From contig DAIDIE010000001.1 of assembly GCA_027459505.1 (NCBI GenBank), forward strand, positions 26,318 to 90,317: a stretch of 64,000 nt of DNA, written 5' to 3'. The notes below the pieces were generated by a model. It saw only the letters and a list, made by a program, of their open reading frames with translations, had not been told where the DNA came from and did not search any database. Shown in pieces: positions 18,729 to 61,670 of this stretch; position 1 is the stretch's first letter, and every line of letters begins with the position of its first letter. The stretch comes from Acidobacteriota bacterium (lineage in GTDB: Bacteria; Acidobacteriota; Terriglobia; Terriglobales; SCQP01). The position numbers were made by a program, and so were the translations under genes.

Positions 18729-18792
18729 CTCGTAGCCTCCGCGGCGCCACCCTCTGCGGCGCCGGAATTGAATTTCTTGCCGCGCTGATGCC

Positions 18793-43485: not shown

Positions 43486-43562
43486 TGGTAGCGCCAGCGG
43501 GATTCGAACCCGCGATCTTCGCCTTGAGAGGGCGACGTCCTGGGCCGCTAGACGATGGCGCC
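43486..43562 (-). tRNA. tRNA-Glu: tRNA-Glu (anticodon CUC), CCA encoded
   Basis: The reverse complement folds as a cloverleaf. Acceptor GGCGCCA/TGGCGCT. D-arm GTCT-AGCGGCCCA-GGAC. Anticodon arm TCGCC-CTCTCAA-GGCGA. T-arm GCGGG-TTCGAAT-CCCGC. Discriminator A plus CCA. The TCGTCTAG..GGCCCAGGAC region is characteristic of bacterial tRNA-Glu. Confidence 0.9.
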
Positions 43563-43661
43563 ACGCCCGTGGAGTGCTCTACTAGAGTACCAAAGCCCCC
43601 AGCAACTGCCAAACCGCGCGGCTCCGAGCCATTCGCAGCAAGGCTGGCGCGAACTGACCTC

Positions 43662-44936: not shown

Positions 44937-44941
44937 GACGC

Positions 44942-46426: not shown

Positions 46427-46587
46427 ATTTCGATCATAAAACGTGCGCAACGCTCCCGGGAATTTACACACCCTGCTGGCCGTCAATCCCGCGCCGGATC
46501 AGGTACGATTAAGTACGCATCACGTCCACGACGATGGAGACGAACCCGGGCTTCGGCCACGCCGCCGAGGTAGTGTATTTTCCCCGC

Positions 46588-47784
46588 ATGGCCCCCAACT
46601 TTGAACGCAGACTGTTTGACCTGATCGAGAGCGTCTCGCGCGCCGAGCGCGACGGCTCGTTCTCCAACGCGCTGGCCGACAGCATCATGCGCGAATTCGG
46701 CCCCAGCCTCAAACTGCGCTCGGTGGCCATCTTCCGTCCGCAAGGCCTGCGCTACGAACCTACCTACTGCGCCGGCGAGCCGCTCTGGGATGTCGTGGAT
46801 GGCTCCCTGTCCACGCGCACCGTGCAGCGCCGTTTGCAGGGACAACTGTGGTGGGTGCAGCGCGGCCTCAAACGCGTCACCCCGCAACAGACCGAGTGGT
46901 TCGACCTCATCCTCATCCCCGTCGCCCGCAACCTGCAGTTCATCATCGGTCTGCTCACCAACTCGCTGGCCGGCGATGAGGGCGAGGAGCGCGAAACCAC
47001 TTTCCACGTCATGGGCCAGTTGATCCGGCTCTTTGTCGATCGCCACCACCAGCGCCAGCGCCTGCAGGAGATTCTCACCCTCGCCCGCCAGCAACAGCTC
47101 AGCCTCCTGCAGCCGGAGTTGCCGCGCATTCCCGGCTTCCAGGTCGCGGGTGTATCGCTCCCCAATCAGGAAGTGGGAGGCGATTACTTCCAGGTCATCA
47201 AGCTGGCCCCGGATTTGTTCGCGCTGGCGCTGGCCGACGCCAAAGGCAAGGGCTTTGAAGCCGCCGTGCAGGTTACCGGCCTGCATGCCGGGCTGCGCGT
47301 GGTCAGCGAAACCCCCTTCAAGGTCTCCCACAAAGTGGGCCTGCTCAACCGCAGCCTCGCCCAGGGCGATGAAATGCGCAACCTGGTCTCGCTGTTCTAC
47401 GCCGAACTCGACACCCAGGGACGCCTGCTTTACGTCAACTGCTCGCACCCGCCGCCGTTCGTGGTTCGCGCCGGCGGTGTCATTGAAGAACTACCCGACG
47501 GTGGCATGTTCCTCGGCCTCAGCCCCGACAGCATTTACCGCATCGGCATCTTCGAGCTGCGCCCTGGCGACGTGCTGGTCGTCTACTCCGACGGCTGGAG
47601 CGAGTTGTTCAACGATCAGGGCGAGGAGTTCGGCGCCGACCGCTTACGCGAAACGCTGCGCCAGGTGCACCGCTGGGAACCCCAGGCCGTCATCGACCTC
47701 ATCCAGGCCAGTTGCGACCAGTTCCGCGGCGAAGCTCCTTACCAGGACGACCGTACGCTGCTGGTGCTCAAACGCGATGGATAG
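46588..47784 (+). CDS. PP2C/SpoIIE-family serine phosphatase with N-terminal GAF-like sensor region
   Basis: C-terminal half has GGDYFQV, ALADAKGKGFEAA, VYSDGWSE and QDDRTLLVLKR. Start ATG 46588 is preferred. Confidence 0.8.
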   Translation: MAPNFERRLFDLIESVSRAERDGSFSNALADSIMREFGPSLKLRSVAIFRPQGLRYEPTYCAGEPLWDVVDGSLSTRTVQRRLQGQLWWVQRGLKRVTPQQTEWFDLILIPVARNLQFIIGLLTNSLAGDEGEERETTFHVMGQLIRLFVDRHHQRQRLQEILTLARQQQLSLLQPELPRIPGFQVAGVSLPNQEVGGDYFQVIKLAPDLFALALADAKGKGFEAAVQVTGLHAGLRVVSETPFKVSHKVGLLNRSLAQGDEMRNLVSLFYAELDTQGRLLYVNCSHPPPFVVRAGGVIEELPDGGMFLGLSPDSIYRIGIFELRPGDVLVVYSDGWSELFNDQGEEFGADRLRETLRQVHRWEPQAVIDLIQASCDQFRGEAPYQDDRTLLVLKRDG

Positions 47785-47856: not shown

Positions 47857-48366
47857 ATGGATTCCAGCTCCCAGAGCTTCCTCGAACTATCCCGCCAGCA
47901 ATTCCTGCAGTGGATACCGCGCCTGCGCGCCGCCGTCGAGCCCCTCTCCCCCGAACAACTCTGGTGGCGGCCTAACCAACACTCCAACAGCGTTGCCAAC
48001 CTGCTGCTGCATCTCAATGGCAACGTTTCGCAATGGCTGTTGGCCAACGTTGGCGGGCTGCCCTATGAACGCCATCGTCCGGAGGAGTTCAGCGCCCGTG
48101 GGACGGCGACCGCGGCCGAGCTCCTGAATCCGTTGCAGGCCACCCTGGAACGCGCCGCGGAGATCCTCGCCACGCTGTCCGAAGAGGCCTTGCGGCGCGA
48201 ACACAGCATTCAGGGCTACGCGGTCAACGGAATGGCGGCCATCTACCACGTGGTCGAGCACTTCAGCATGCACTATGGCCAGATTCTCTACGTCGCCAAA
48301 TTGCTGCAGGATCGCGACCTCGGCTTTTACGCCCACCTCAACCGCGCTAAAACCGCTCAGCAGTGA
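47857..48366 (+). CDS. DinB/DUF1572 family protein
   Basis: Four-helix-bundle His pattern: NSVANLLLHLNGN ... HVVEHFSMHYGQI. Confidence 0.75.
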   Translation: MDSSSQSFLELSRQQFLQWIPRLRAAVEPLSPEQLWWRPNQHSNSVANLLLHLNGNVSQWLLANVGGLPYERHRPEEFSARGTATAAELLNPLQATLERAAEILATLSEEALRREHSIQGYAVNGMAAIYHVVEHFSMHYGQILYVAKLLQDRDLGFYAHLNRAKTAQQ

Positions 48367-48419: not shown

Positions 48420-48899
48420 TCACCGCCGGCCTTGTTTCCTGCCGGCACACGAGTGTATATAGTCGTTCACGTTGATGGCGTGCCAATCGCCGTTCTCGAT
48501 TTCCTCGCGGATCTGCGCCGGCGTCTTTCCCTTACGTGTTTCCTGGTAGGCGAACGCGGCTTCCATCAAGCACACTTCGCAGACCGAGGCGTGATCGGAA
48601 ACATAGCAGTCCAGCAGACTGCGGTGCCCCAGCGTTTTGTCGCAACGGCAATAGCAGGGGAGTTGGTACAGCACTGGCTTGATCTTGGCGGCCAAGGCAT
48701 AGATGTTGCGCACTCGCGGATCCTGATACTTGCTTGGGGGTTGCACCGCTGGCAGCGGACCCGGCGGATGGGCGTGGTAGGCTGGCGCGGCCCCCTTCGC
48801 CGGCGTCGCCGCCGTTACATGATCCGCACCTGCGGGCGTTTGCGCGGCAGCCAAGCCCAACAGTGCCCAGGCGCCAAGAATAAAACGCAAACGGGTCAT
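48420..48899 (-). CDS. Secreted PCYCxC-motif protein
   Basis: ATG 48899 overlaps the upstream stop (ATGA). Signal peptide MTRLRFILGAWALLGLAAAQ. Motif LPCYCRCDKTLGH plus a downstream CEVC. It resembles the family annotated as PCYCGC-motif (lipo)proteins (from memory). Confidence 0.65.
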   Translation of the reverse strand: MTRLRFILGAWALLGLAAAQTPAGADHVTAATPAKGAAPAYHAHPPGPLPAVQPPSKYQDPRVRNIYALAAKIKPVLYQLPCYCRCDKTLGHRSLLDCYVSDHASVCEVCLMEAAFAYQETRKGKTPAQIREEIENGDWHAINVNDYIHSCAGRKQGRR

Positions 48900-49954
48900 C
48901 GTTTTCCCTCTCTCTCTTCCGGTCGCAACGGTGCCAGTGGCGCTAAGCGGAAACAACTCCGGCTGCTGCCATTGCCGTCAAAAAGCCGAAGCCTCCCGCG
49001 CCGGATGGCGTGCAGACCGTTCCGCAAACGCCTGCGGCGGTTACGGCTGGCACGAATCTCCCGGGCCAGCAACAGCCCGGCTGCATCGGCTTCCTGCCAA
49101 AGCACTGGCTTGTGCGGTCGCAAGGAATTGACTCGGCAAGGTTGCACCCCCGCCAACTCGGACTGGCCAACCACCTGCGCCCCGCCATCACTCATTGGCG
49201 CAAAGAGCCCGGCGGATCGCCACGATAAAAGCACCTCCGCCCGATTCGACTGGCTCCAGCGCCGCAGCATTGACTCAGTCTCCGCGGGTCCTGTCCAGAA
49301 AACGACAACGTGCACCCCTTGGAGAGCATCCACCGCCGCGTCCTCGCTGGCCAGCAGCACCTTTGGCGCACTCACTCCAAGCGCCTTCGCCGCCGCTAAA
49401 AACGCCAGCTCCCCCTCGCGGCCGTCGTGATCGTTTGCCGTTACCAGCAGAACGCGAGCCGCTGATCTCCCCCCCGTGCGGTAGACGGCGTGGGCTAGCA
49501 GTTGCGCCTGTTGGCGATCGCTGGGCGCCACCCGGAATATCCAGGACAGATGAGCGCTGGTCGTCGTGTTGTCGCTGGCGGTGCTGACGACCGGGACGCC
49601 GAGTTTGGCGGCGATCAACTCGCAGAGGTGCGTAGTCTCACCGTCGGGCGCAAGCAGCGCCAATGCGTGGTCGGCGAAGGCCAGTTGGACGACTTTGCTC
49701 GTCGTTTGGCCCCATTCCTGGCTGGCATCGGCCACATCCACATCAACGCACGGCACTCCCCTCAATCCCGCCCGAATCCCTTGCAACCAAGCCTCCCCAG
49801 CCGCTTTCTCCCGCCCCCGCAACCCCGCCACAACCCCTATAGAAGTGGCGCCGGCGCATGCATGCTCCACGCCCTGCGGCGATTGCGCCGCCGTCACCGC
49901 AATGCCGCCCAACAGCGACACCAGCAACCCCACCATCGCCCGGCCCCCGCTCAT
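48896..49954 (-). CDS. Periplasmic binding protein, type 1 (LivK/Peripla_BP_6-like)
   Basis: Signal peptide, then SIGVVAGLRG...WLQGIR...PVVSTASDNTTT...IFRVAPSD...ARVLLVTANDHDGREG, a pattern like ABC branched-chain amino-acid/amide binding proteins. ATGA overlaps at both ends. Confidence 0.6.
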   Translation of the reverse strand: MSGGRAMVGLLVSLLGGIAVTAAQSPQGVEHACAGATSIGVVAGLRGREKAAGEAWLQGIRAGLRGVPCVDVDVADASQEWGQTTSKVVQLAFADHALALLAPDGETTHLCELIAAKLGVPVVSTASDNTTTSAHLSWIFRVAPSDRQQAQLLAHAVYRTGGRSAARVLLVTANDHDGREGELAFLAAAKALGVSAPKVLLASEDAAVDALQGVHVVVFWTGPAETESMLRRWSQSNRAEVLLSWRSAGLFAPMSDGGAQVVGQSELAGVQPCRVNSLRPHKPVLWQEADAAGLLLAREIRASRNRRRRLRNGLHAIRRGRLRLFDGNGSSRSCFRLAPLAPLRPEEREGKR

Positions 49955-51333
49955 TGCCCCCCGCTAATCTTCTCGAATTTGAACTGCCGGTGCTCCACCC
50001 GCGCTACGGGAACGGGGGCAATATCGTTGAGCGTGTAATCGAAGAAGCTTGGCCCGCTCACCCCACAGTAGCCCTTCATCTCATAATTCTTCAGTGCCTC
50101 CATAATCCCTGGGCGGCTCAAGCCGCCGCGCTGAATGGCGCCGATCAATATGTTCATGCCGTCATAGGCCCGCGCCGCATACGCATCCGGCAGCCGATGG
50201 TAGCGCTGCTCGAACTCCCGGCGGAATGCCCGCCAGCGCGGATCGGTGCGGGTGGGATCAAGAGCGCAGGTCACAACCAGGCCATTGGCGGCCGCTCCGG
50301 CCGCCTGCAGAAAGCGTTGCGTGCATAAGCGGCTACCGCCGAAGACGGCCGCCTGGATGTGCGCCGCGCGCAGCGCCCGCAGCTGAACCGCCGCACCCCT
50401 TGGACCACCCCACAGCACTACGGCCTGCGGATGCGTCGCCGCAATGATTCGGGCCAACCGCGCCGCGCTGTTGGGATTGGTCTGCGCGGGATCGTATTCC
50501 AACTCCGCCACCGGTGGGGCGCCGGCGCGCCGTGCCACATTGACGAACTCCCGGATCCCGAGACGCCCATACCGGCTAACGCTCACCAAAACCGCGATCC
50601 GTGTCAACTTCCGCCTTCGAAAAATAACATTGGCTAGCGCATATCCCTGCTGCCGGTCGTCGGGAAACTCCCGCAGCAGCCACGGTACCCGCGTCTCGGT
50701 CAGCGTCGGGTCGGAAGTGCCGGTATTCACTATCGGCAACCCCACCTTCAACGCGACCCGCAGTGCGACGTGCGTGCTGACCGCGTTTATCGATCCCAGC
50801 ATCGCCCAGACGTGTTGACGAAACACCATGTCCGCGATTTCGTTGGCCGACGATCCCCACAGTGCGGCATCGTTGTGGAGTCTAAGAACATAGGGAATGC
50901 CCGCACCCCCCGAGCGGAGATGGAATCCCCCCTTGGCATTGGCTTGCTCCACGGCCAATTGCGCGCCCTCAAGCATTGCGAGCCCAAAGCCGTGTCCGCG
51001 CGCGCTCTTTTTAATGGGACCGAGCAGTCCGATGGCCACTTGCTGCGGTGCCCGATCACTCTCCCCCGTCACCTGGTTCGGCGTCCGGTCGAGCCGCAGC
51101 GTTTCCGGCGACAGATACCACTCGTGGTACGGCTTGGCGAAATGACGGAACGCGACCGCCGCCAGCGGCATGTTGGCGTAGCGCAAGTGCGCGGCTGCCG
51201 GTGTCGGCGCGCACCCCCCCGGCAGTTGCGCGCCGCTGAGCCCGCTCAGCAACAAGCCAATACCTATCAGCCTCAGCCGCCAAAGCATAAACCCTCCTGC
51301 TCTCATCCGCCTACTTCGATTCCGGCGATTCAA
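49951..51333 (-). CDS. Periplasmic binding protein, type 1 (LivK/Peripla_BP_6-like), paralogous in architecture to the next gene
   Basis: VAIGLLGPI...MLEGAQLAVEQANAKGG..., GSINAVSTHVALRVALKVGLPIVNTGTSDPTLTE..., REFPDDRQQG..., IAVLVSVSRYGRLG. The start is uncertain (51333, 51306 or 51288). Confidence 0.65.
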   Translation of the reverse strand: MNRRNRSRRMRAGGFMLWRLRLIGIGLLLSGLSGAQLPGGCAPTPAAAHLRYANMPLAAVAFRHFAKPYHEWYLSPETLRLDRTPNQVTGESDRAPQQVAIGLLGPIKKSARGHGFGLAMLEGAQLAVEQANAKGGFHLRSGGAGIPYVLRLHNDAALWGSSANEIADMVFRQHVWAMLGSINAVSTHVALRVALKVGLPIVNTGTSDPTLTETRVPWLLREFPDDRQQGYALANVIFRRRKLTRIAVLVSVSRYGRLGIREFVNVARRAGAPPVAELEYDPAQTNPNSAARLARIIAATHPQAVVLWGGPRGAAVQLRALRAAHIQAAVFGGSRLCTQRFLQAAGAAANGLVVTCALDPTRTDPRWRAFRREFEQRYHRLPDAYAARAYDGMNILIGAIQRGGLSRPGIMEALKNYEMKGYCGVSGPSFFDYTLNDIAPVPVARVEHRQFKFEKISGGQ

Positions 51334-51799
51334 AAATCGCCATGCATTCCATCTCGATCAGCAGGTCGGGACGGCAGAGAATCGCCTGAATGCCGGTCGA
51401 AGCCGGCAGTGGCGCCAGTTCCTGCCGCCGGAAAAACTCCGTGCGGATTTCGTTGAAGGCAACATAGTCGCGCTCAATATCCCGCAGGTAGCACGTGGTG
51501 CGAACGACATCCTTCCAACTTGCGCCCTCCGCTTCCAGCAGAGCGGTGATGTTTTGGTAGGTTCTCCAGGTCTGCGCGCTAAAGTCTCCCAGGTGGATCG
51601 TCTTGCCGTGCTCGTCAATACTGGCCGTTCCGGATATCATCAGGATGGTGACTCCCTTGATGTCCAGACGCAAACCGCGCGAAAACGACACCGGCTGCGG
51701 GTAATCGTAGGCCTCACAAAGGTTTTTGAGCGCGGTTATGGGTTGTTTCGCGATCGGCACGTGGGCCGCCGGCTGACTCGGTGCGAGGATGGAACTCAT
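51311..51799 (-). CDS. RidA/YjgF/chorismatase-superfamily protein
   Basis: ATG 51799 with AAGGAGA RBS. ILMISGTASIDEHGK..., QTWRTYQNITALLEAEGASWKDVVRTTCYL.D...F...R, and ...PASTGIQA.L......IEMECMA resemble the RidA fold. No signal peptide. Confidence 0.65.
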   Translation of the reverse strand: MSSILAPSQPAAHVPIAKQPITALKNLCEAYDYPQPVSFSRGLRLDIKGVTILMISGTASIDEHGKTIHLGDFSAQTWRTYQNITALLEAEGASWKDVVRTTCYLRDIERDYVAFNEIRTEFFRRQELAPLPASTGIQAILCRPDLLIEMECMAIFESPESK

Positions 51800-51800
51800 G

Positions 51801-52904
51801 CTAATTCTCCTTTTTGAATAGGGGTTGTGGGTTGAGCCCGAGACTGACGCCTTGGGCCGTGGCCACCCAAAGGCGGCCCGGTTGAAAAGCAACATCGTAG
51901 AGATAGGCGCTCGCGGGAGCAGTGGCGGTCTTGCGCCTGGCCGCGACTCGGCCGGCGCCGTTGACCAGCTCGACTTCGGTTCCTGCACCCTGCCGCCGGT
52001 AGACAATCCATCGCCGGCGGGCCGGCTCAAACTCATTCAGCCCGCGATTGGTGCAAATCCAAACCGCCGCTCCGCGAGCATGAACCTTGTTGATGAAGTT
52101 CGAAATCAATCCGCTGTCGCTGGCCAAATAGTTGTGCCAATCGCGGCCGTCATACCCGCTCAAGCCGAAGTAAGTGCCGGCCCACCACCATTGCGTGGCC
52201 CGGTCGTAGCTCACCGAGGAGACCACGTCATTGACCAGTCCCTGATTGCGGAACAGCACGATTTCCGGCGACTGGTTGGGGTTGGTGAAGGGGCGCCAGT
52301 AACGGCCCCGTTGGTTGTACTCCAGAATTCCGCTGCCCCACATCGCCACCAGCACCCGTCCGGGTGCGACCGTCACCCCATATCCCCATGGATCGCCCAT
52401 GGGCGCGTTCTCCTGCGTGTACGTGGTCCATTCCTGGGTGTCCGGATCGAACCGGCTCACCCCGGCCGCCGTCGCAAACCACAGCGTGCGCCCTTCAATA
52501 GCGATCCCGTAGACAACGTTGTTCACCAATCCGCTGTTGAGCTGGGTGTAGTTATGGAACACACCGCCGGAATATTGGCTGACCCCGCCAAAAGTCCCGA
52601 TCCAAAGATCGCCCGTTTGCGGATCCGGCGCTAGCGACAAAACCGCCTGCTGGACCAGGCCGTCCTTGCTCGTCAAAGTCTTCCAGCGGCCGTGGCGGTA
52701 ATACGCCAAACCGTTTTCCGTTCCCGCCCAAACGCGGTGCCCTTGTAACGCAAGGCAGAAAACCCGCCCCGGCGGCAAGCCCTCCCTGGGCCCAAAGTTT
52801 TGCCAACGCGTGTAAATGATCGGCGCTGGCGCCACTGCCGGCGCCGCGCCCACCAGGGCGGCGACCAGCCCCACCACAATTGCGAGATGAAGTGTCCGAT
52901 TCAT
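51801..52904 (-). CDS. Secreted beta-propeller protein (two-component-regulator-propeller-like repeats)
   Basis: Signal peptide MNRTLHLAIVVGLVAALVGAAPA. Repeated ...WAGTENGLAYY..., LWIGTFGGVSQY, LWFATAAGVSRF, WWAGTYFGLSGY, VWICTNRGLNEF and LWVATAQGVSL units. Confidence 0.65.
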   Translation of the reverse strand: MNRTLHLAIVVGLVAALVGAAPAVAPAPIIYTRWQNFGPREGLPPGRVFCLALQGHRVWAGTENGLAYYRHGRWKTLTSKDGLVQQAVLSLAPDPQTGDLWIGTFGGVSQYSGGVFHNYTQLNSGLVNNVVYGIAIEGRTLWFATAAGVSRFDPDTQEWTTYTQENAPMGDPWGYGVTVAPGRVLVAMWGSGILEYNQRGRYWRPFTNPNQSPEIVLFRNQGLVNDVVSSVSYDRATQWWWAGTYFGLSGYDGRDWHNYLASDSGLISNFINKVHARGAAVWICTNRGLNEFEPARRRWIVYRRQGAGTEVELVNGAGRVAARRKTATAPASAYLYDVAFQPGRLWVATAQGVSLGLNPQPLFKKEN

Positions 52905-52920
52905 GTTTTCCTCGCCAGCG

Positions 52921-54780
52921 CTAGAACGTGTGCAGATACTGAATGAGGTCGTTGAGATCGCGCTTGCTCATTCCGGCGATAACTCCGTGCTTTTGCGTCT
53001 GGTTGTATTTGGTCCAGATTTCTTCCAGCGAGCGCGCTTCGCCATTGTGCAGGTACGGCGGACTGAGCGCGATTTCCTCCAACTGCGGAATATCCACCCT
53101 TCCACCGTGAAAGCAGGAATTGTCGTCGGCGGCCGTCATCGTGCCCACATTCACGCTGAAGCGCGCCGTGCCATGCGACGCTGGGTTGTGGCAGCCGGCG
53201 CAGCCCATGTTGTCGAACAGGGCCTTGCCGCGCCGCTGCTGCCGCGTCAGTGGTTGGCCAACGCGGTGATAAGGATTCGGGGGCAGCGGTATCGAGCTCA
53301 CAAAAGCCACCAGATCTTCCAGCTCCCTCTTGTGGCCCAGAAATCCCTGCGACCGGAAAATGATCGCCGCCGCGCCCACGCCGTCCTGCGTTTCCAGGTT
53401 GGGGCTGCTGGCGTTCCAATTGAACGGAGCCGTTCCGGCAATTCCCCGCAGCGTGCGTACGGTGACCCGGCAGCGCCCCATGGTTCGGCTTTGCAGGTCC
53501 CACGCCAACCCGTTTTGATCGCCTTCCGGATGGCAACTCGCGCAAGCGACCCCGCCTTGGTAGGCGAAGCGAGCGCTATAAAACAACCGTTGCCCGCGCC
53601 GCCGCGGCGTGATGGCTTCAACGCCATTGAGCGGGATTGTCGCCGTCGTCCAGGTGCGCAAGTCAATGCGCGTGAGGGAGTCGTCCAGCCGGTTGACAAC
53701 TACCGCAAAGCGCCCGGCCGGCGCCACCGCCACCGCCACCGGATCGCGTCCGCTCGCAATCTCGCGCTCTTCAAAGCGCGCCGCCGTGTCCATGCGATCG
53801 GCCATCCGCGCCGGGGGATGGCCGAGCAGCCCCAACAGGCCGCGCGTGTCAAACACTGCAACGCGATTGGAGGCCGCGCTCGTGACTAGAATGTGTCCTC
53901 CGCCTCTGGTGAAGGCCAGACCCTCGGGTAACGCGAAGCCACGCTCCATCGAGTCCAGCGGAAATTGCAGCGTGGCCGGCGTTGTGCCCTCTCTGGGAAG
54001 CAGTGCGGCCATGGCGTTGTTCAGCGTCCAGCCCTGGGAAACGCGGACGATGGGCACCTCGTTGTGCGGGCGAATCTCAGGAATCAAAATGACGCCGGGC
54101 CAAGGGCGGGGCGCCTCCGCCGGCGTGCGCAACTGAACCGCATTGGGCACCGCGATGCGCCGGGCCACGGTAAGGCTCGCAACCCGGATCACCGTCACCT
54201 CCGATACCGGCGCTTGGTCATAAGGATGCAGCGGCGCTTGGAGGCCCGAAACGTAGACATACCGGCCACCGCGCGACAGCATCACCCCATGCGGCCAACG
54301 CCAGGCCGCAAGCCGCTTCAACTCCTTGCCCGTCTTCAGATCGTCGATCGAAACGTCGTTGCTTTCGCTGTTGGCGATGAATAGATGCCGCCCCTCGCGA
54401 TCAGTCGTCAGGCCAACCGGCCCCCAGCCAGTAGGCAACGTGCGCAGCAGGCCAAGACTGTGCGCGTCAAGTTCGCTGACATTGTTCGCCCAGGTGTTCG
54501 AAACGAAAAGGGTGCGGCCACCGGACGCTATGGCCAGCCCGGATGGGTGCGCACCCACTGTGGCACGGCGCAGAATCTTGCCCGAAGCCGCATCCAACGC
54601 CAACAGCTCGTTGCTGCCTTGGCACAGCACATAGAGCGTGCGCCCGCTGGGCGAAAAAACGACCGCCTCGGGATCAAGATAGTGCGGCGCGCCCGCCGCG
54701 GGCGCGCCCTGAGCGCCGCTGCCGTACCCTACGGCGGCCATCACCAACAACACGCAAGACCGGCGCCAGCGCTTAAACAT
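52921..54780 (-). CDS. Secreted YVTN-type beta-propeller fused to a di-heme cytochrome c peroxidase/MauG-like domain
   Basis: Signal peptide. Blades GRTLYVLCQGSNELLALD, GRTLFVSNTWANNVSELD, GRHLFIANSESNDVSIDD and GRYVYVSG. Two CxxCH sites (CASCH, CAGCH). C-terminal PPYLHNGEARSLEEI is typical of CCP/MauG. Confidence 0.75.
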   Translation of the reverse strand: MFKRWRRSCVLLVMAAVGYGSGAQGAPAAGAPHYLDPEAVVFSPSGRTLYVLCQGSNELLALDAASGKILRRATVGAHPSGLAIASGGRTLFVSNTWANNVSELDAHSLGLLRTLPTGWGPVGLTTDREGRHLFIANSESNDVSIDDLKTGKELKRLAAWRWPHGVMLSRGGRYVYVSGLQAPLHPYDQAPVSEVTVIRVASLTVARRIAVPNAVQLRTPAEAPRPWPGVILIPEIRPHNEVPIVRVSQGWTLNNAMAALLPREGTTPATLQFPLDSMERGFALPEGLAFTRGGGHILVTSAASNRVAVFDTRGLLGLLGHPPARMADRMDTAARFEEREIASGRDPVAVAVAPAGRFAVVVNRLDDSLTRIDLRTWTTATIPLNGVEAITPRRRGQRLFYSARFAYQGGVACASCHPEGDQNGLAWDLQSRTMGRCRVTVRTLRGIAGTAPFNWNASSPNLETQDGVGAAAIIFRSQGFLGHKRELEDLVAFVSSIPLPPNPYHRVGQPLTRQQRRGKALFDNMGCAGCHNPASHGTARFSVNVGTMTAADDNSCFHGGRVDIPQLEEIALSPPYLHNGEARSLEEIWTKYNQTQKHGVIAGMSKRDLNDLIQYLHTF

Positions 54781-56479
54781 GCTTCCCCCTGGCCGTCTCC
54801 TCTTCCGCTTCGGTAACGGTCACAATCTGGTCGGCCCGGGTCTGGCCCAGTCGCTGCACGACCCCGCTTGGCCAATGAACCTCGACCTGATCGGCATGAG
54901 TCGCCCGCCCCAGACCGAAGTGCGGCCGGGAGTCGCTTTGCGAGAGATATCCGGAAGCGGAAACGCACTCAATCATCTGCCGATGTCCGCCGGCGGTGAC
55001 GAAAACGCGCGCCCCATAACCATTGCGATTGCTTCGCCGCCCCACCAGACGCAACTTCAGCCAGTGGTGCGGATCCGGCCCGCGCGCCGTGTTCTTCAGC
55101 AGCACCCCGTCCCCATTCAGCGATATCAGAAAGGCGCCCATGCGGCCGTCGTTGTCGAAGTCGGCAAAGGCCGCCCCACGCCCCACCAAACGGCGCCGGA
55201 AGATCCCGCCACCCGCCTCGGAAACGTCGCTGAAGCGCGCCCCTTCCGCCCCGGCGCCCATATTGCGCAGCAGCGAAGGCTCCATCGCCACCGGCCAGTT
55301 CAACCCCCCGTTGAGAATGAAGATATCCTTCCAGCCGTCGTTGTCGAAGTCGAAAATTCCGTCGCCCCAGGAGACGTATTGCCCGGATATCGCGGCTACT
55401 CCCGCGGCTACCGTGACATCGTCGAAGCCGCGCGCTCCGCGGTTGCGGAAAAGACGGTGATAGTGCGTGTCGGTGACAAACAGATCAAGCTGGCCGCGGT
55501 TTTCCAGATCGGCGAAAATCGGCCCCATCGCCGAATCGGTTTCGCCGTCCTGCCCGTAGGCCACCCCCAGCTCCGCCCCCACCTCGCTAAAAGTGCCGTT
55601 GTGGTTGTTATGGAAGAGATAGCTCTCCATGCTGTCGTTGGCGACGTAGATATCGGGCCAACCGTCGTTGTCGTAGTCGCCAACCGTCACGCTCATCGCC
55701 CTGCCACCCGGCTTGAACACGCCAGCGTCATGCGTCACGTCGCTGAACGTGCCGTTGCCGTTGTTATGAAAAAGCCGGTTCGATTCCCCGTCGTAGTTGA
55801 GCGGCCCGGGAAAGTGATCGGCGCCGTAGTAGGTGCGCAGGCGGGGATCGAAACGCAGGTAGTTGCCCACGAACAGGTCCAGACGGCCATCGCGGTCGAT
55901 ATCCACCCACGCGGCGCCCGTCCCAAAACGAGGATTGCCCACGCCCGCTTGGGCGGTGATATCCGTGAACGTTCCGTCGCCGTTGTTGTGATACAGAATC
56001 GCCGAACCGTAGTTGGTGACGTAGATGTCATCGAATCCGTCGTTGTCGAAATCACCCACCGTCACGCCCATGGCGAACCCCCGGCCACTCACGCCTGCTT
56101 TCGCCGTCACATCGGTGAAGGTGCCGTCGCCATTGTTGCGATAAAGACGATTGCCGGCATCCTGGCGCGTCGCCGGCGAGCTATCAGTGACTCCCGGTAT
56201 GTAGCGCCCGTTGAGAACATACAGATCCAGCAGGCCATCGTTGTTGTAGTCCATCCAGGCGCAGCCCGATCCCGTGGCCTCGACGATGTTGCTCAAGTCG
56301 GTTTCGCCGAAAACATGGCGGAACTCGATGCCCGCTCTTCGCGTCACGTCGCGAAACAGCGGCCAGCCCTGAGGCGCGGTAGGGGCGGCGGTACGAACCG
56401 GCCGCGCCAGCCCGCGCATCGCCCAGGCGGCGGGCGTCGCCGCCAGAAACTGCAGCAGCTGTCTCCGGGAAGTCTTCAT
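54773..56479 (-). CDS. CRTAC1-like protein: Tat-signal, FG-GAP/VCBS repeats, ASPIC/UnbV C-terminal domain
   Basis: ATG 56479 gives MKTSRRQLLQFLAATPAAWA (twin-arginine signal). Repeated NNGDGTFTD(V/I)T and DYDNDG/DFDNDG units. C-terminal SASGYLSQSDSRPHFGLG. The start overlaps the upstream TAA by 1 nt (TAATG). Confidence 0.8.
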   Translation of the reverse strand: MKTSRRQLLQFLAATPAAWAMRGLARPVRTAAPTAPQGWPLFRDVTRRAGIEFRHVFGETDLSNIVEATGSGCAWMDYNNDGLLDLYVLNGRYIPGVTDSSPATRQDAGNRLYRNNGDGTFTDVTAKAGVSGRGFAMGVTVGDFDNDGFDDIYVTNYGSAILYHNNGDGTFTDITAQAGVGNPRFGTGAAWVDIDRDGRLDLFVGNYLRFDPRLRTYYGADHFPGPLNYDGESNRLFHNNGNGTFSDVTHDAGVFKPGGRAMSVTVGDYDNDGWPDIYVANDSMESYLFHNNHNGTFSEVGAELGVAYGQDGETDSAMGPIFADLENRGQLDLFVTDTHYHRLFRNRGARGFDDVTVAAGVAAISGQYVSWGDGIFDFDNDGWKDIFILNGGLNWPVAMEPSLLRNMGAGAEGARFSDVSEAGGGIFRRRLVGRGAAFADFDNDGRMGAFLISLNGDGVLLKNTARGPDPHHWLKLRLVGRRSNRNGYGARVFVTAGGHRQMIECVSASGYLSQSDSRPHFGLGRATHADQVEVHWPSGVVQRLGQTRADQIVTVTEAEEETARGKHV

Positions 56480-58074
56480 TATTGTTCTGCTCCTTGAACG
56501 GGACTGGCGCCGGAACCCGGCGGCATTGGCGGCATCCGCCTGCACAGCGTCACTGAACACTGCTTCCGCGTTCCCCGCTGCGCTGCGGGCTTCAACATCG
56601 AAACCGTTCTTCTGCTCGCGCCGGTCTTGGAACGCCGCGGCACGCCGGTCCTCTTTCCGCCGCCCTGCGTCCGCGCTGCCGGCGCCCCCGCGGCAGTCGC
56701 TGCCGGCCCGCCAATGACGTAAGGAATCCGCTTTCGCCGTAATATCAGCGGCCACCGGTTCGGCGGCGCAAGCGCCTCACTTTCGTGACAGCCGGTGCAG
56801 GCGTGTTGCTCGTCCGGGCGCACCCAGATCCAGCTCCGCTGCTCCCGCAACACCCGGTCAGCCGCATCCAGCAGTTGAAACCGGATCGCCCGGTCCGCGG
56901 CTACTTGCACATAAAACGACCCATCACTTGCCACCGGCGCCGTGCCCAGCGTTTCCGAGCCATGCGAACTCCGCCCCAAAATCCGCACCCGCACCGCCGC
57001 GGCGGCCACGGCCCGTGGGTTCATGCTGAGGCGGCTGTTCAAACACAATAGTTGCCCCTCCCCCATGCGGTAGAGCGGCAAGTTCAGCCACTGCAAAATG
57101 CTTGGATACACCAACGGCGCCGCATGCGCCTGCAAGCGAACCACTTCCACCAGCGACCCTGCCACCCCATCCCCGCGCAACAGCGGCCGCACGCGGTGTG
57201 TGCGCGGATGAAACATGACGGGAAGATAGCGACTGCCCCTGCGCTGGGAGGCCACTACCCACCCGTTCTCGAACGGGCGTGGCCAATACAAACTTCCGGT
57301 CTCGATCCCCAGCGGCAACGCCCGCACCGCCCCCGCACGCAATTCCCACAGTGTCGCGGCTCGGCCCGGTTGTTGCCCGCGGAAGACGAGCGTGCCCGCT
57401 GCGATTTCTGCCGCTTCTGTATTTCTCGTGCCGGTGTGCGTCACGTCGCGCAACACCCGGAGGCCGGAGCCGTCGGGATGAAGTACGTAGAGCTGCCGGC
57501 TCCGTTGCACCAGCCCCGGCGCGCGCAGTGGCCATCCCGCTGAAACCAGCAGTCGGCCGTCGTGCAACACGTCCTCCAGCCGGAAGTCCCCGGGGCCGAA
57601 CGTGATCGGCTGGGTCGCTGCGGAGGCTGTGCGCACATAGATCTGGGCCCGCCCCCGAACCGACTCACCTGTATACGCGATGGCGCCTTCCGCCAGATAC
57701 AAAGGGTGAAGGCAGTTGTCGCGACCGTGGGTCAGCTGCCGCAAACCCGTGCCATCCGCCTTCAATGTCCAAACTTGCCAGCGAGAATCCGCTTTACGTT
57801 GGGCGGAAAAAAGAATCTGTTTGCCGTCGAACGAGACTTCCGGATCGCGAACGGCAAAAAACGGCAGGTTCAGCACGGTTCGATCGCGCTTGCCTCCGCT
57901 CCCCACCAACACAAGTTTGCTGCCCCTTGGAAAACGGCGGATCAGCCGGCCGGCATCCACCGCGGGCGCCTCAACTCCTACCCAACGAACACTCCGCGCA
58001 CCGGAGCTCTGGGCTGAAAGGATGGCGCCGGCGAGCAAACCGGCGGTCAAGAAAATGATGATTCGACGAGCCAT
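56479..58074 (-). CDS. Secreted PD40/TolB-like beta-propeller protein with C-terminal CxxCH heme motif
   Basis: ATG 58074 gives MARRIIIFLTAGLLAGAILSAQ. Then FDGKQILFSAQRKADSRWQVWTLKADGTGLRQLT (PD40-like). The C-terminal LGTAPVASDGSFYVQVAADRAIRFQLLD......WIWVRPDEQHACTGCHE resembles the segment annotated in some databases as the hydrazine-synthase-alpha middle domain (from memory). Confidence 0.7.
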   Translation of the reverse strand: MARRIIIFLTAGLLAGAILSAQSSGARSVRWVGVEAPAVDAGRLIRRFPRGSKLVLVGSGGKRDRTVLNLPFFAVRDPEVSFDGKQILFSAQRKADSRWQVWTLKADGTGLRQLTHGRDNCLHPLYLAEGAIAYTGESVRGRAQIYVRTASAATQPITFGPGDFRLEDVLHDGRLLVSAGWPLRAPGLVQRSRQLYVLHPDGSGLRVLRDVTHTGTRNTEAAEIAAGTLVFRGQQPGRAATLWELRAGAVRALPLGIETGSLYWPRPFENGWVVASQRRGSRYLPVMFHPRTHRVRPLLRGDGVAGSLVEVVRLQAHAAPLVYPSILQWLNLPLYRMGEGQLLCLNSRLSMNPRAVAAAAVRVRILGRSSHGSETLGTAPVASDGSFYVQVAADRAIRFQLLDAADRVLREQRSWIWVRPDEQHACTGCHESEALAPPNRWPLILRRKRIPYVIGGPAATAAGAPAARTQGGGKRTGVPRRSKTGASRRTVSMLKPAAQRGTRKQCSVTLCRRMPPMPPGSGASPVQGAEQ

Positions 58075-58567
58075 ATTGCAGAGCGTGCCCACGGATGCTG
58101 ACGGCCATCTCATTTCTTCTCTTCCGTCGGCGCAGTCCGTATGTAATAGCACCGCCGCCCCGGATTCCATGACAATTCGCAGGAAAACGCCCGTAGTTCA
58201 CCATAAACAGCGAACTAGTCTGGCGGCATCGAGAGAGGTACTCGAAAGGCATTAGCATCCCTGGCAGGACCAGAGGCAGTTCGAATCGGATTGACTTGGA
58301 AATTGCAGGCCAAAATGCCTTGGGCGTTGCGCGGGCGCGCAGCGCCGGCACGCCGCGTCATGAACTGGCGCCGGCAAGGGACGTATGGGGAAAGAGCCGT
58401 GCCGCATGCCCTGAGGTTCTGGGAACGGGCCGCCGGCGTGAGTTATCGAGAAGTCGCGGTGACGTTGTGGCCGCCTCGGGGAATGGCGGTTGCGATGCTG
58501 CCTTCCCGAGACAGCGGCCGGCGGTGGAGCGTGTTACTGTCGCGCCGCCCCCGCGCGTTGGCAAAGC

Positions 58568-59263
58568 TTAGGCGTCCGGATTGCCGGCTTTTGCGCGCAG
58601 CTCGGAAAGTGCGCGGATCACTACCCGCCGCCCGTTGATGCGCGCCACCCCTTCATTCCGCAGAACGGTCAAGGCGCGACTGACTGTTTCTGCGCTCAGG
58701 CCGAGCAGTTCCCCGATTTCCTGCCGCGACAGCGGCAGCTGCAGCGCAATCGGACTGCTTCCGGGCGTCGGGCTGGGGAGAAGACTCAGCAGAAATGACG
58801 CGACCTTGGCGCAGGCGTCACGCTGTCCGCCAGCCCCGATTTGCCCTCGGTTCCTCGCCGCGTCCCGCAAAAGGAATCGCATCAGCGCCAGGGCTAACTC
58901 AGGCCGCTGGGTCATCGCCGCCAACAGCGCTTCGCGAGGAGCCGCACAGATGTCGCATTTGCCTATCGCCACCGCCCGCAAGGGATAGCATTCTTCCGCC
59001 ACTGCCTCCAACCCAAACAAATCGCCGGCCTGCACCAGACGGGCAATCCGCGAGTGCCCGTCCTGCAGATCGTCAATGATTTTTATATTCCCAGCCCTCA
59101 CGGCATACACATGGCGAGCCTCGCTCCCATGCAAAAAAATCACTTGATCAGCGCCTACGGGAGCCGGGCGAAAAAGGCAAGTCAGCGCGGAGCTGGCGGC
59201 TCTATCGAAACCGCCCGCTCGTAGCGTGGCAACCACAGGACACGTCTGGCATCGCGCTCTCAT
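58568..59263 (-). CDS. Crp/Fnr family transcriptional regulator with Cys-rich N-terminus
   Basis: cNMP-binding-like barrel (...GDLFGLEA...) and C-terminal HTH LSRQEIGELLGLSAETVSRALTVLRNEGV. The N-terminal MRARCQTCPV...LTC plus the later CDIC offer FNR-like Cys ligand candidates. Confidence 0.8.
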   Translation of the reverse strand: MRARCQTCPVVATLRAGGFDRAASSALTCLFRPAPVGADQVIFLHGSEARHVYAVRAGNIKIIDDLQDGHSRIARLVQAGDLFGLEAVAEECYPLRAVAIGKCDICAAPREALLAAMTQRPELALALMRFLLRDAARNRGQIGAGGQRDACAKVASFLLSLLPSPTPGSSPIALQLPLSRQEIGELLGLSAETVSRALTVLRNEGVARINGRRVVIRALSELRAKAGNPDA

Positions 59264-59464: not shown

Positions 59465-59520
59465 TTTACGCCCACCTCAACCGCACTAAAACCGCTCAGC
59501 AGTGACCCTAGCGCTGTGCG
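59465..59520. repeat. Right copy of 56-bp direct repeat (contains the aroA stop and a 13-codon DinB-tail remnant)
   Basis: TTTACGCCCACCTCAACCGCACTAAAACCGCTCAGCAGTGACCCTAGCGCTGTGCG. On the + strand it reads ...VYAHLNRTKTAQQ*, against the intact DinB-family C-terminus FYAHLNRAKTAQQ*. Confidence 0.9.
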
Positions 59521-60830
59521 ATCCGCTCCAGCGTGTCGTAGAACTCCGGATACGAGATCGAGGCGCACTCGGCGTCTTCTATCACCGTTTCGCCCTGCGC
59601 CTTCAGCGCGGCGATGGCAAACGCCATGGCAATGCGGTGGTCCCCAAAGCTGTTGATGCGCGCTCCCCGCAGCGTCTGCTCGCCCGGCACGCGCAGCCCG
59701 TCCCGGCGCTCCTCGCACTCCACCCCCATCGCCCGCAGGTTGTGCACGATGCTCACAATCCGGTCGCTCTCTTTGACGCGCAGCTCCGCCGCATCCTGAA
59801 AATCCATGCCGCTATCGGAGACGGTAGCCAGCACCGACAGCACCGGGATCTCGTCAATCAGCGCCACCGTCTCCTGTCCCGCCAGCGTCGTTCCCCGCAG
59901 CCGTCCGCGCGCGGGGCCACTCACCTGGATGGTCCCCACCAGTTCGCCGCCGCGGTCTTCAATGTGCAGGATCTCGATCTGCGCGCCCATGCGGCGCAGC
60001 ACATCGAGCAACACCGCGCGCGTGGGATTCAAGGAAATCTCCTGCAGCACCAGCTCCGAGCCGGCAAACATCGCCCCGGCGCACAGGAAAAACGCCGCCG
60101 AACTGGGGTCGCCGGGAATGCGGTACTCCTGTGGCTGCAATTCCGCCACCGGCCCGCTCACGCTTACCCGCTGCCGCCCCCGCCGTACTTCAACGCCAAA
60201 ATTTCGCAGCGCCAGCTCGGTATGATCGCGCGTGGGCTGCGGCTCTTCCACCGTGGTCTCGCCCTGCGCATACATGCCGGCCAGCAGGATGGCGCTCTTC
60301 ACCTGCGCGCTCGCCACCGGCAACGTGTAAGTAATCCCCTGCAGGCTCGTCACCGGAGAAAAGCGCAGCGGCGGACGCCCGCCCTCCTCGGCCCCAATAT
60401 TGGCCCCCATCTCCAGCAGCGGCTTGATCACCCGCGCCATGGGACGGCGCGCAATCGATTCGTCCCCGGCGATCACCGAGGCAAACGGCTGCGCCGCCAG
60501 AATGCCGGAGAGCATGCGGATCGCGGTCCCGGAATTCCCCGCGTCCAGCACGCGCTGCGGCGCCTGCAATCCGCGCAGGCCGACGCCGTGAATGGTGATC
60601 TCGCCCTTCTCGCGATCGCTTTCCACCCGCACTCCCATGGTCTGCATGCAGGCCAGAGTGCTGTGGCAGTCCGCTCCCGAGGAGTAGTGCGTCAATTTGG
60701 TGACCCCCGCCGCCAGGCTGCCCAGCATGGCGTAGCGATGCGATATGCCCTTATCACCCGGCGGTGCGACTGTTCCGGAGAGATTGCGGGCGGCGAGGAT
60801 GGTGCGTGTGGCGACTTGCGTCTGCGTCAA
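59508..60830 (-). CDS. aroA: 3-phosphoshikimate 1-carboxyvinyltransferase (EPSP synthase)
   Basis: PPGDKGISHRYAMLG, LDAGNSGTAIRML and GDHRIAMAFAIAAL. TTG start at 60830. Confidence 0.9.
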   Translation of the reverse strand: MTQTQVATRTILAARNLSGTVAPPGDKGISHRYAMLGSLAAGVTKLTHYSSGADCHSTLACMQTMGVRVESDREKGEITIHGVGLRGLQAPQRVLDAGNSGTAIRMLSGILAAQPFASVIAGDESIARRPMARVIKPLLEMGANIGAEEGGRPPLRFSPVTSLQGITYTLPVASAQVKSAILLAGMYAQGETTVEEPQPTRDHTELALRNFGVEVRRGRQRVSVSGPVAELQPQEYRIPGDPSSAAFFLCAGAMFAGSELVLQEISLNPTRAVLLDVLRRMGAQIEILHIEDRGGELVGTIQVSGPARGRLRGTTLAGQETVALIDEIPVLSVLATVSDSGMDFQDAAELRVKESDRIVSIVHNLRAMGVECEERRDGLRVPGEQTLRGARINSFGDHRIAMAFAIAALKAQGETVIEDAECASISYPEFYDTLERIAQR

Positions 60831-61170: not shown

Positions 61171-61219
61171 TCAATTGCCGGGAGCTTGCACTCTTCCCGC
61201 GCCCACCCCAAAAATCTCT

Positions 61220-61670
61220 GCCGCAAGCGGACTGTAAGCCGGATTCTGTACCTGACGGTTCCCCGCCAGGCGGCAATCATTCTTCTAGGAGAGCCATTAC
61301 TGGCTCCCTCCAGCAACCTACCCGGAAGTTGCACCCCGCCAAGGCGGGGAACGGGCCGGGCCGGCCCATGCGCCCTGCGGCGCTCCTTCCCTATTTGGTC
61401 TTGCTCCGTGTGGGGTTTGCCCTGCCCCCGGCCGTTACCGGCGGGGCGGTGCGCTCTTACCGCACCTTTTCACCCTTACCGGACGGCGCAGCCGCCCGGC
61501 GGTACGTTTTCTGTGGCACTTTCCGTGAACCGGCGTTGTGACACCGGCCCCCTGGCCGTTAGCCAGCACACTGCCCTGTGGAGTCCGGACTTTCCTCTCC
61601 CCGGGACCGGCCGCCACCGCCGCAGCGTGTGGCGCGGTCTCCCAGGCAGCAATTGCCCGTCCGCTTGCAA
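61220..61670 (-). ncRNA. rnpB: RNase P RNA, bacterial type A
   Basis: The reverse complement contains GAGAGGAAAGTCCGGACTCCACAGGGCAG (P4/CR-I) and ACAGAAAACGTACCGCC. It also contains GGTAAGGGTGAAAAGGTGCGGTAAGAGCGCACCG, GGGTAGGTTGCTGGAGGGAGCCAGTAATGGCTCTCCTAGAAGAATGATTGCC and ACAGAATCCGGCTTACAG. P1 pairs GCAAGCGGAC (61659-61668) with GTCCGCTTGC (61223-61232). The ends are good to a few nt. Confidence 0.95.

Follow-up and report, generated by a model that had tools for sequence, protein, structure and literature searches.

A divergent operon of hydrazine synthase homologs in a Terriglobia bacterium and its possible role in the reduction of small oxidants

In a 64,000-nucleotide stretch of contig DAIDIE010000001.1 from an Acidobacteriota bacterium of the class Terriglobia (the window), eight minus-strand genes follow one another closely behind a gene for a Cys-rich Crp/Fnr-family regulator (48420-59263). 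The encoded heme proteins, propellers and binding proteins raise the question of which system they form and what this system does. The original prediction treated them as a single functional unit that could not be assigned to a described system. Two of the products, however, are homologs of the alpha subunit and of a fused beta-gamma subunit of hydrazine synthase (HZS), and we are confident that the operon is a divergent representative of the HZS-homolog operons that non-anammox Terriglobia carry. What the operon does can be said with far less assurance. Tentatively, we favor an HZS-built complex that reduces a small oxidant at low oxygen and does not make hydrazine. To our knowledge, HZS was long regarded as an enzyme without relatives, and its homologs outside anammox bacteria were recognized only in 2023-2025. 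The open reading frames (ORFs) are named A-H in the order of transcription:

58568..59263, minus strand: Crp/Fnr-family regulator (Pfam HTH_Crp_2, cNMP_binding and Crp; four-Cys pattern C5, C8, C29, C106)
58075..58567, minus strand: intergenic spacer between the regulator and A, 493 nt, presumed promoter region (from reading the sequence)
56479..58074, minus strand: A, short HzsA-like subunit (PF18582, HZS_alpha, E 1.1e-17; 5c2v_A, E 1.1e-13)
54773..56479, minus strand: B, CRTAC1-like FG-GAP propeller with ASPIC/UnbV (five FG-GAP_3, E 4e-53; UnbV_ASPIC, E 2.4e-21)
52921..54780, minus strand: C, fused HzsB/HzsC-like subunit (Pfam YNCE, CCP_MauG and Cytochrom_C; 5c2v_B, E 9e-17; 5c2v_C, E 1.4e-16)
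51801..52904, minus strand: D, secreted Reg_prop-type propeller (PF07494, 44 bits)
51311..51799, minus strand: E, cytoplasmic RidA-fold protein of 162 residues (PF01042, Ribonuc_L-PSP, 69.9 bits, cut-off 27.3)
49951..51306, minus strand: F, secreted type-1 periplasmic binding protein, start at 51306 or 51288 (Peripla_BP_6, E 1e-37, 131 bits)
48896..49954, minus strand: G, second type-1 binding protein, degenerate (Peripla_BP_6, 40 bits, residues 38-195 only)
48420..48899, minus strand: H, secreted CYCXC/PCYCGC-motif protein (PF13798, PCYCGC, E 9e-14; NF041379, 96.8 bits, cut-off 90)

The identity of the operon follows from A and C. A consists of a signal peptide, a TolB-like beta-propeller, an HZS_alpha middle domain and a single CxxCH motif (C426-H430). 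Its only Pfam match is PF18582, the "hydrazine synthase alpha subunit middle domain", and its best match among all PDB sequences is HZS-alpha from Kuenenia (5c2v_A), aligned over the propeller and the CxxCH region. The AF2 model of A (pLDDT 80) likewise has 5c2v_A as its top Foldseek match (E 1.5e-22, TM 0.68), with TolB (E 2.5e-11) eleven orders of magnitude behind in the same search. Among the NCBIfam models, hydrazine synthase subunit alpha comes first with 64 bits, against an equivalog cut-off of 800.

In C, a signal peptide is followed by a seven-bladed YVTN propeller (residues ~35-385) and a di-heme domain (C413xxCH417 and C527xxCH531); two CxxCH motifs are present in 84/84 C proteins. 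In searches against the PDB the propeller matches HZS-beta (5c2v_B) and the di-heme domain matches HZS-gamma (5c2v_C). With a C-family profile built from 21 sequences the match to 5c2v_B extends over full-length HZS-beta (E 3.5e-51) and that to 5c2v_C reaches 2.3e-36, whereas MbnH-like, cytochrome c peroxidase (CCP) and MauG structures are matched by the same profile with just 1e-11 to 1e-5. Foldseek with the propeller of the C model also ranks 5c2v_B first (TMt 0.87). The top NCBIfam model is hydrazine_BC, the beta-gamma fusion (102 bits, cut-off 1250), and the separate beta and gamma models score 72 (cut-off 560) and 70 (cut-off 625); A and C reach about 8-12% of their equivalog cut-offs. 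PF03150 is matched above its cut-off (35.0 bits versus 25.6), and there are weak matches to MbnH-family, MauG and quinohemoprotein amine dehydrogenase beta models. The choice between a CCP and a MauG-type enzyme, as first posed, was thus too narrow, the di-heme domain being nearer to HZS-gamma, although the Trp and Gln of a CCP-type distal pocket are indeed kept.

The comparison with HZS from anammox bacteria (Kuenenia stuttgartiensis, 5C2V, EC 1.7.2.7) is detailed on both sides. In common are the propeller and heme middle domain in alpha, the seven-bladed propeller (beta) and CCP-fold di-heme domain (gamma), fused here as in Scalindua, and the conserved His at the distal position of the second heme; the extra heme-binding Cys is kept by most family members. 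In contrast, HZS has four hemes and the complex proposed here three, the alphaII domain is absent, the Tyr591/Zn site, gamma-His144 and gamma-Asp168 are lacking, and the gene order is reversed, with alpha first. B and D are additional putative subunits, and the host, Acidobacteria-like and not an anammox bacterium, has no other anammox genes in view.

HZS homologs outside anammox bacteria have been grouped by Hagglund et al. 2025 (Genome Biol Evol evaf244, PMC12758564) into four clades, in which alpha and fused beta-gamma genes are co-localized; hzsA-like and fused hzsBC-like pairs had earlier been noted in Phycisphaerae metagenome-assembled genomes (MAGs; PMC10732223). As described there for clades I and II, the alpha and beta-gamma genes flank an FG-GAP "CRTAC1 family" gene, and two substrate-binding-protein genes lie downstream. 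In clades II and III, alpha lacks heme alphaII and the last ~100 residues, and beta-gamma of clade II has only two canonical hemes. According to the same description, Tyr591, Ser590 and Cys303 of alpha, the Glu of the beta loop and gamma-His144 (replaced by Trp) are not conserved in the non-anammox homologs, and a 2-residue gap falls at Ser590/Tyr591 (PMC12758564). The window shares with clade II the position of alpha upstream of beta-gamma, the FG-GAP gene between them and the binding-protein genes downstream, and also the missing heme alphaII, the two canonical beta-gamma hemes, the Trp at gamma-His144 and the missing Tyr591/Cys303 site. This published arrangement of alpha, FG-GAP (CRTAC1), beta-gamma and substrate-binding genes contradicts the view that the gene set matches no described system. 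The assignment to clade II follows the published architecture, matched point by point, rather than tree placement, and the window copy is a further outlier, with Asp at the Cys165 position, no His cluster in D, a shortened G and an extra CYCXC gene.

For a wider comparison, relatives of C were collected with a degenerate-pattern scan using one genome per species. At least 525 loci were found, and the best 80 of these come almost entirely from MAGs of Terriglobia (Acidoferrales, Terriglobales and Bryobacterales/Solibacter). The gene content of 86 related loci was then determined by tblastn with the window proteins and by all-against-all ORF clustering. The run A-B-C-D-E is complete in 63 of these 86 loci from other species, with F next in most; most of the others are cut by contig ends. 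The window proteins are 35-48% (C) and 27-41% (A, the lowest of the operon) identical to their relatives. A search of 1.8 billion representatives with the C-family profile was swamped by giant YVTN-repeat proteins, but its top 150 matches include about 40 full-length clusters of 600-680 residues as well as longer, N-terminally extended forms.

The junctions within the window are equally consistent. A and B overlap by 1 nt (TAATG at 56479) and B and C by 8 nt (54773-54780); 16 nt separate C from D and 1 nt separates D from E, and ATGA overlaps join both F to G and G to H. These positions are as first reported except at E/F, where the overlap depends on a TTG start at 51333. The best Shine-Dalgarno sequence (AGGAGG) fits ATG 51288, and a start there or at ATG 51306 leaves a gap of 4-22 nt. 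Internal promoters and terminators in the operon are as frequent as in shuffled sequence, and a promoter scan of the spacer gave chance-level results. Since the junctions are tight or overlapping and the same gene order is kept in 63/86 loci across many Terriglobia species, the operon is one unit, in agreement with the original prediction. Its heme, propeller, RidA and binding-protein assignments are each backed by Pfam searches and, for H, also by NCBIfam. Sec-type signal peptides can be read on A, C, D, F, G and H, but none on E.

The operons of other species hold genes that the window copy lacks. The operons of 61 loci include a gene for a type I-beta DAHP synthase. It is genuine by score (352-400 bits with NF006421, cut-off 335) and is placed in 30 loci immediately upstream of A, overlapping its start or at most 50 nt away, and in 23 loci after E; examples are L001:16342-17289, L004:925-1788 and L085:13553-14449. 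About ten loci end with a GMC flavoprotein and a Tat protein of the "gluconate 2-dehydrogenase subunit 3" type (G2DH3), and there are minimal variants with the order A-C-GMC-G2DH3 or C-GMC-G2DH3. The GMC gene occurs in 10/15 loci with Asp or Ala at the position of gamma-Cys165 and in 0/67 loci with Cys, an association with a Fisher's exact value of 1.4e-9 that is uncorrected for shared ancestry. Among the related loci L001-L086 (for example L003:12568-14949 and L018:11874-14288), the operon thus has two subtypes, one with the third heme-Cys and one with Asp and a GMC flavoprotein. No GMC gene is present anywhere in the 64-kb window, despite the Asp at this position.

One minimal variant lies beside a divergent Rieske/cytochrome b operon. 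In L002:1-9144 and L003:1-8443, this operon includes multi-heme cytochromes, an FAD/Fe-S oxidoreductase and a cupredoxin-like protein and is divergent to A-C-GMC. It presumably resembles the elaborate Rieske/b complexes of anammox bacteria.

An HZS-homolog operon is therefore a standard feature of Terriglobia, which are among the most abundant soil bacteria, and its conserved gene set is larger than reported. It includes a Reg_prop propeller with a His/Asp cluster, a RidA-fold protein lacking the catalytic Arg, the DAHP synthase and orphan binding proteins, and it occurs in two subtypes. The main text of the published clade II description mentions neither RidA nor Acidobacteria, the latter appearing just in the supplementary hit tables, which give a 428-residue alpha homolog for the culturable Paludibaculum fermentans, and in the accessible parts of the main text we saw no mention of a Reg_prop propeller, an embedded DAHP synthase, an FNR-like regulator or a GMC-linked subtype (PMC12758564). 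Measured against the consulted text of that description, the analysis adds the wider gene set, the division into Cys and Asp/GMC subtypes and the broad occurrence in Terriglobia. Solving the function of the operon would show what chemistry hydrazine synthase evolved from, and could reveal a hitherto unrecognized sink for peroxide or nitric oxide (NO) in low-oxygen soil.

What the complex may do is best approached from the surroundings of its hemes. W455 of C occupies the position of HZS-gamma His144, and this Trp is invariant in the family. At the gamma-Cys165 position 83 sequences have Cys (67), Asp (14, including D466 of the window) or Ala (2), and at the gamma-Asp168 position Thr or Ile is found and Asp is not conserved. 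Residue 465, which corresponds to the Gln of CCPs, is Gln or Glu in 83/83 sequences, and Pro468 is conserved as well. The family segment YKWNGHNPDLETQCGPRI can be aligned with FWDGRAKDLKEQAAGPI of Nitrosomonas CCP (1iqc), with the peroxidase Trp and Gln kept, although the phmmer domain is weak. The tunnel-loop region of beta aligns in C, and its Glu is weakly conserved in the family and replaced by Ser in the window. Since the HZS scaffold and Cys coexist with the Trp and Gln of CCP/MauG, the pocket of the first heme is a hybrid. The invariant His598 aligns with the DMHG distal-His region of HZS-gamma heme II, which points to a second heme with bis-His ligation.

With CCP, MauG and MbnH (PF03150), C shares two c-hemes in a domain of ~230 residues, a Trp between the hemes and a distal W-x-G...D-L-x-x-Q segment. 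These enzymes are, however, stand-alone proteins of ~330 residues, whereas C is fused to a propeller, is paired with an HzsA-like heme protein and has Cys (or Asp) beside the Gln. Their second heme is ligated by His/Met or His/Tyr, in contrast to the likely bis-His ligation in C.

The A protein offers a simpler picture. Exactly one CxxCH is found in 72/75 A proteins, and the relatives of A terminate ~35 residues past this motif, right at the start of B, so that the heme alphaII domain is absent. The window copy continues beyond the conserved family end with an Ala/Gly/Arg/Pro-rich tail of ~65-80 residues (about 458-531; 56479-56722) that is predicted to be disordered. In 74 family sequences no Tyr occurs in the six positions after CxxCH, no conserved extra Cys, His or Met was found in the family, and the Tyr591/zinc site (His587, Cys303) of HZS heme alphaI has no counterpart. 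Since neither the Tyr nor another conserved Cys, His or Met is available, the heme of A is probably an ordinary His-ligated one with an open distal side. P0040 was considered as a genuine HzsA reference for this comparison and discarded as just another distant homolog, which leaves the Tyr591 region with no direct alignment to Kuenenia HzsA.

We tentatively propose a periplasmic, HZS-like complex with three hemes that is formed by A and C, probably together with B and D. Electrons would enter C through its bis-His heme, donated by a cytochrome bc-type complex, by soluble cytochromes or, in one subtype, by the GMC flavoprotein. They would reach the first heme of C, where a small oxidant would be reduced, and the His-ligated heme of A could act as a second reaction site or as a relay. 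E and, in most genomes, the embedded DAHP synthase would provide cytoplasmic support functions. Among possible substrates the CCP-type pocket of C favors H2O2, with NO as the second candidate, and expression would be induced at low oxygen. A low-oxygen-induced periplasmic reductase for peroxide or NO in this specific sense is possible, but we regard it as somewhat doubtful. Regulation by an FNR-type factor is typical of CCPs, and DAHP synthase is a classic peroxide-sensitive mononuclear-iron enzyme. In E. coli, Ccp is a hypoxia-induced respiratory H2O2 reductase (PMC8115020). Redox-protective genes recur in the neighborhood, namely the CYCXC protein and a DinB gene in the window and ergothioneine genes in L085, which is circumstantial.

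Several observations weigh against a small-oxidant reductase, and against peroxide in particular. The equivalent of gamma-Cys165, the third heme link in HZS, is kept by 81% of the family; CCPs and MauG lack such a Cys, so the chemistry may differ from both. A simple peroxidase leaves the roles of B, D, F and G unexplained and makes A superfluous, and E and the DAHP synthase may be merely linked housekeeping genes. A few pocket residues, together with context, carry the assignment of the substrate. Upstream of A in the window there is no TTGAT-N4-ATCAA or TGTGA-N6-TCACA site with up to 2 mismatches. Finally, among 151 columns with at least 90% conservation, C of the window departs from the family at 33, more than any other of 83 sequences (median 3), and beside the first heme Cys is changed to Asp, Pro to Val and Arg to Gly relative to family-invariant residues. 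As this is the most divergent C of all 83, traits of the family may not hold for the window copy.

The retained Cys leads to the alternative that we take most seriously, even if it is unlikely: an enzyme of N-oxide chemistry that reduces NO to hydroxylamine, or further to ammonium, at the first heme of C, with the heme of A handling the product, in the service of NO detoxification or respiration in low-oxygen soil. Subunit architecture and closest sequence relatives are those of HZS, the equivalent of gamma-Cys165 is present in 67/83 members, and heme gammaI of HZS binds NO (PMC12607021). The FNR-like regulator upstream and the Rieske/cytochrome b complex adjoining the minimal variant would be in line with such a role, and the RidA-fold protein E could conceivably deal with reactive nitrogen adducts. 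On the other hand, gamma-His144 is replaced by Trp, gamma-Asp168 and the beta-loop Glu are not conserved, and C of the window itself has Asp instead of Cys at the third-link position. No nitrite or NO reductase genes are found in the window or among the conserved neighbors, and a survey of the rest of the window revealed no nitrogen-cycle or cytochrome-maturation genes and no hydrazine dehydrogenase/HAO. A bolder version would place the operon in an as yet unplaced N-oxide chemistry of soil. NO would be converted to hydroxylamine at the triple-linked heme of C and the product channeled to the heme of A for further reduction or for coupling to an amine or amino acid supplied by F/G, while the Arg-less E would clear reactive N-adducts from the cytoplasm and the complex would represent a living relative of the HZS ancestor. 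We consider this a long shot.

The GMC subtype suggests a different role, as the cytochrome part of a flavocytochrome dehydrogenase. C, with or without A, would accept electrons from a periplasmic GMC flavoprotein oxidizing a sugar, an alcohol or an aromatic alcohol, analogous to the three-subunit gluconate/fructose dehydrogenases, and the window copy would have lost its flavoprotein. In ~10 related loci the GMC gene and the small Tat subunit do follow the operon, directly after C in minimal loci, and they lack a cytochrome subunit of their own. The window belongs to the Asp group, in which the GMC gene is concentrated. The GMC-type dehydrogenases normally have a tri-heme cytochrome subunit with no relationship to HZS-gamma. 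However, the 64-kb window has no GMC gene, most of the family (67/82 non-window loci) has no GMC partner, the association statistic takes no account of shared ancestry, and a five-coordinate, specially linked heme would be needless for pure electron transfer. Altogether, this role appears quite improbable for the complex.

Even more doubtful is a maturase of the MauG/MbnH type, in which C would react with H2O2 to a bis-Fe(IV) state and oxidatively modify a partner (A, B, D, F or G). The modified partner, carrying a protein-derived cofactor, would then be the actual catalyst. The invariant Trp between the hemes and the pocket Gln are as in MauG/CCP, and the weak matches to MbnH-family, MauG and quinohemoprotein amine dehydrogenase beta models point the same way. 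Several secreted partners are translationally coupled to C, and the GMC enzyme of one subtype possibly makes H2O2. Yet C is far nearer to HZS-gamma (2.3e-36) than to MbnH/MauG (1e-11 to 1e-5), and its second heme is seemingly bis-His as in HZS rather than His-Tyr as in MauG. No conserved Trp/Cys/Tyr pair is evident in A, B has no conserved Cys, and it would be left unexplained why a partner is a heme protein homologous to HZS-alpha.

The divergence of the window copy could also mean that the operon is a decaying relic that is losing its function in this genome. Besides C, the D protein deviates strongly, at 27/125 conserved columns, among them those of three invariant His and three acidic residues; the C-terminal lobe of G is missing, the tail of A is disordered, and the DAHP synthase and GMC genes are absent. 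All reading frames are nevertheless intact with coupled junctions, and the heme motifs of C are preserved. A 2-kb metagenomic contig of a sister lineage (L088) allows a direct comparison. It has the same order D-E-F, with 85%, 92% and 84% protein identity, dN/dS values of 0.14 (D), 0.05 (E) and 0.19 (F), and 20 of 22 checked substitutions of the window D, including the loss of the His/acidic cluster. The low dN/dS and the D substitutions common to both mark the window operon as a stable variant of its lineage, maintained by purifying selection. On these grounds the status of a pseudogene or relic is rejected for D, E and F, and for the operon as a whole we regard decay as very improbable. The value of the window copy lies chiefly in comparison, as a natural "mutant"; other members would be better models of the family.

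Least probable is a true hydrazine synthase or another N-N bond-forming enzyme, whether cryptically anammox-like or joining hydroxylamine to an amine from F/G: both subunits are homologous to HZS and the operon holds transporter-less binding proteins of the amino-acid/amine type, but the scores are far under the equivalog cut-offs (64 versus 800 and 102 versus 1250), A has a single heme with neither the alphaII heme nor the Tyr591/zinc site, Trp replaces gamma-His144, the window has no hydrazine dehydrogenase/HAO genes, and Hagglund et al. conclude in the text available that the non-anammox clades make no hydrazine, assigning no function (PMC12758564). The pocket of C is without gamma-His144 and gamma-Asp168 and A without the Tyr591/zinc site, which makes hydrazine synthesis by the complex very unlikely.

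For the favored small-oxidant reductase, induction at low oxygen would depend on the regulator. Among 11 homologous regulators encoded ahead of the operon in other loci, 10-11 keep each of C5, C8, C29 and C106; the spacing of these four Cys differs from that in E. coli FNR. All NCBIfam scores of the regulator are under the cut-off (FixK, Fnr and FnrL; NF008365 with 83 bits versus 228). Homologous Crp/Fnr regulators stand upstream of HZS-like genes in 10 related loci, directly before A in nine of them and before C in L018, where no A was found. The proposed link between the Cys-rich regulator and the operon is therefore plausible, but it gains no support from an FNR or CRP box in the window. 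Such boxes were also considered as a marker of the regulon and given up, since only scattered TTGAC-N4-(G/A)TCAA-like sites occur in 3-4 other loci. Just upstream of the regulator, an EPSP synthase gene (aroA) is located at 59508-60830 on the minus strand.

The partner proteins differ in how closely they are tied to A and C. In other loci, the gene flanked by A and C encodes a protein 50-65% identical to B, and the B family has no conserved Cys. The twin-arginine signal noted earlier on B (SRRQLLQF) is real in the window copy; as a family trait, Tat export is rejected, since most B proteins have Sec-type signals. D is 43-51% identical to the gene following C in other loci. Its family has six invariant residues, His225, His332, His355, Asp208, Asp210 and Glu212, which may constitute a site for a metal or ligand. 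In D of the window (51801-52904) none of the six is kept, and L088:3-743 has the same replacements.

E is the most conserved gene of the operon, with 58-81% identity to its relatives. It has the fold of the RidA/YjgF imine deaminases and matches RidA structures with 1e-13 to 1e-14 (TIGR00004, 55.5 bits, cut-off 106), but an invariant PASTG stands where RidA has its catalytic PAR, so that Ser134 replaces the catalytic Arg (Arg105 in E. coli RidA). Matches to chorismatases are weak (TIGR04444, 33.7 bits, cut-off 325; FkbO, 4bps, E 7.5e-8). The chorismatases FkbO and Hyg5 are multi-domain proteins of ~340 residues, whereas E is a single domain of 162 residues with a weak match to their C-terminal domain, under every curated cut-off. 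A mini-chorismatase paired with the DAHP synthase in making a chorismate-derived metabolite was therefore set aside in favor of the better RidA matches (1e-14 versus 1e-7 for FkbO/Hyg5), and is kept only as a distant option. A search with a 68-residue N-terminal query of E gave no matches. E-like proteins are extremely abundant and highly conserved in soil metagenomes: each of 8000 scored candidates reached an E value of 1e-10 or lower, with identities of 69% or more among the top 120. At L087:9001-9516, an E-like RidA-fold gene (79% identical) lies outside any HZS-like operon, between genes for TPR proteins and near a TonB-dependent-receptor-like gene. Hence E is not strictly tied to the operon, and E and the DAHP synthase may be linked housekeeping or co-regulated cytoplasmic functions rather than parts of the complex.

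F is conserved after E in most related loci, and its nearest solved structures are amino-acid binders of the Leu/Ile/Val type (E 1e-14). F and, in its N-terminal lobe only, G have the fold of type-1 substrate-binding proteins of ABC importers, but no cognate permease or ATPase lies alongside. This absence was correctly noted at the outset; such genes are missing from the window operon, from the neighborhoods of L001, L004 and L085, and from the families within 10 kb of related loci that are common to at least 10 of them. Full-length G homologs match window positions 49855-49226 alone, so that ~280 N-terminal residues are recognizable, and the last ~100 residues of G have no match in any frame. 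No homolog of H was found in 84 related loci; H is an add-on seen in the window alone, outside the conserved operon of other loci.

The gene next after F encodes a 4-hydroxyproline epimerase in ten loci of the Terriglobales type (L042:15587-16561 and nine others; 417 bits with NF052296, cut-off 450). In L085, from Acidoferrales, EgtB-like and EgtD-like ergothioneine genes precede the operon and an alpha-type carbonic anhydrase gene follows it (4281-6623 and 17103-17876).

In the window, the end of the operon faces a convergent plus-strand gene of the DinB/DUF1572 family (mycothiol-S-transferase-like, 47857-48366). Directly downstream of the operon on the minus strand (43489-47448) are genes for a 321-residue protein (46483-47448), a B12-binding radical SAM protein (44981-46486) and an ATP-grasp enzyme of the L-amino-acid-ligase type (43662-44993), and a tRNA gene (43489-43562); this group may be a peptide or natural-product cluster. 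The region 61219-61668 (minus strand) has no protein matches because it encodes the bacterial class A RNase P RNA (270.9 bits). At 9266-21099 on the minus strand, a fatty-acid/polyketide-type cluster contains four ketosynthase-like genes, two short-chain reductases, a FabA-like dehydratase, an AMP-binding enzyme and a DegT-type aminotransferase, and adjoins a gene for myo-inositol-1-phosphate synthase (19789-21099).

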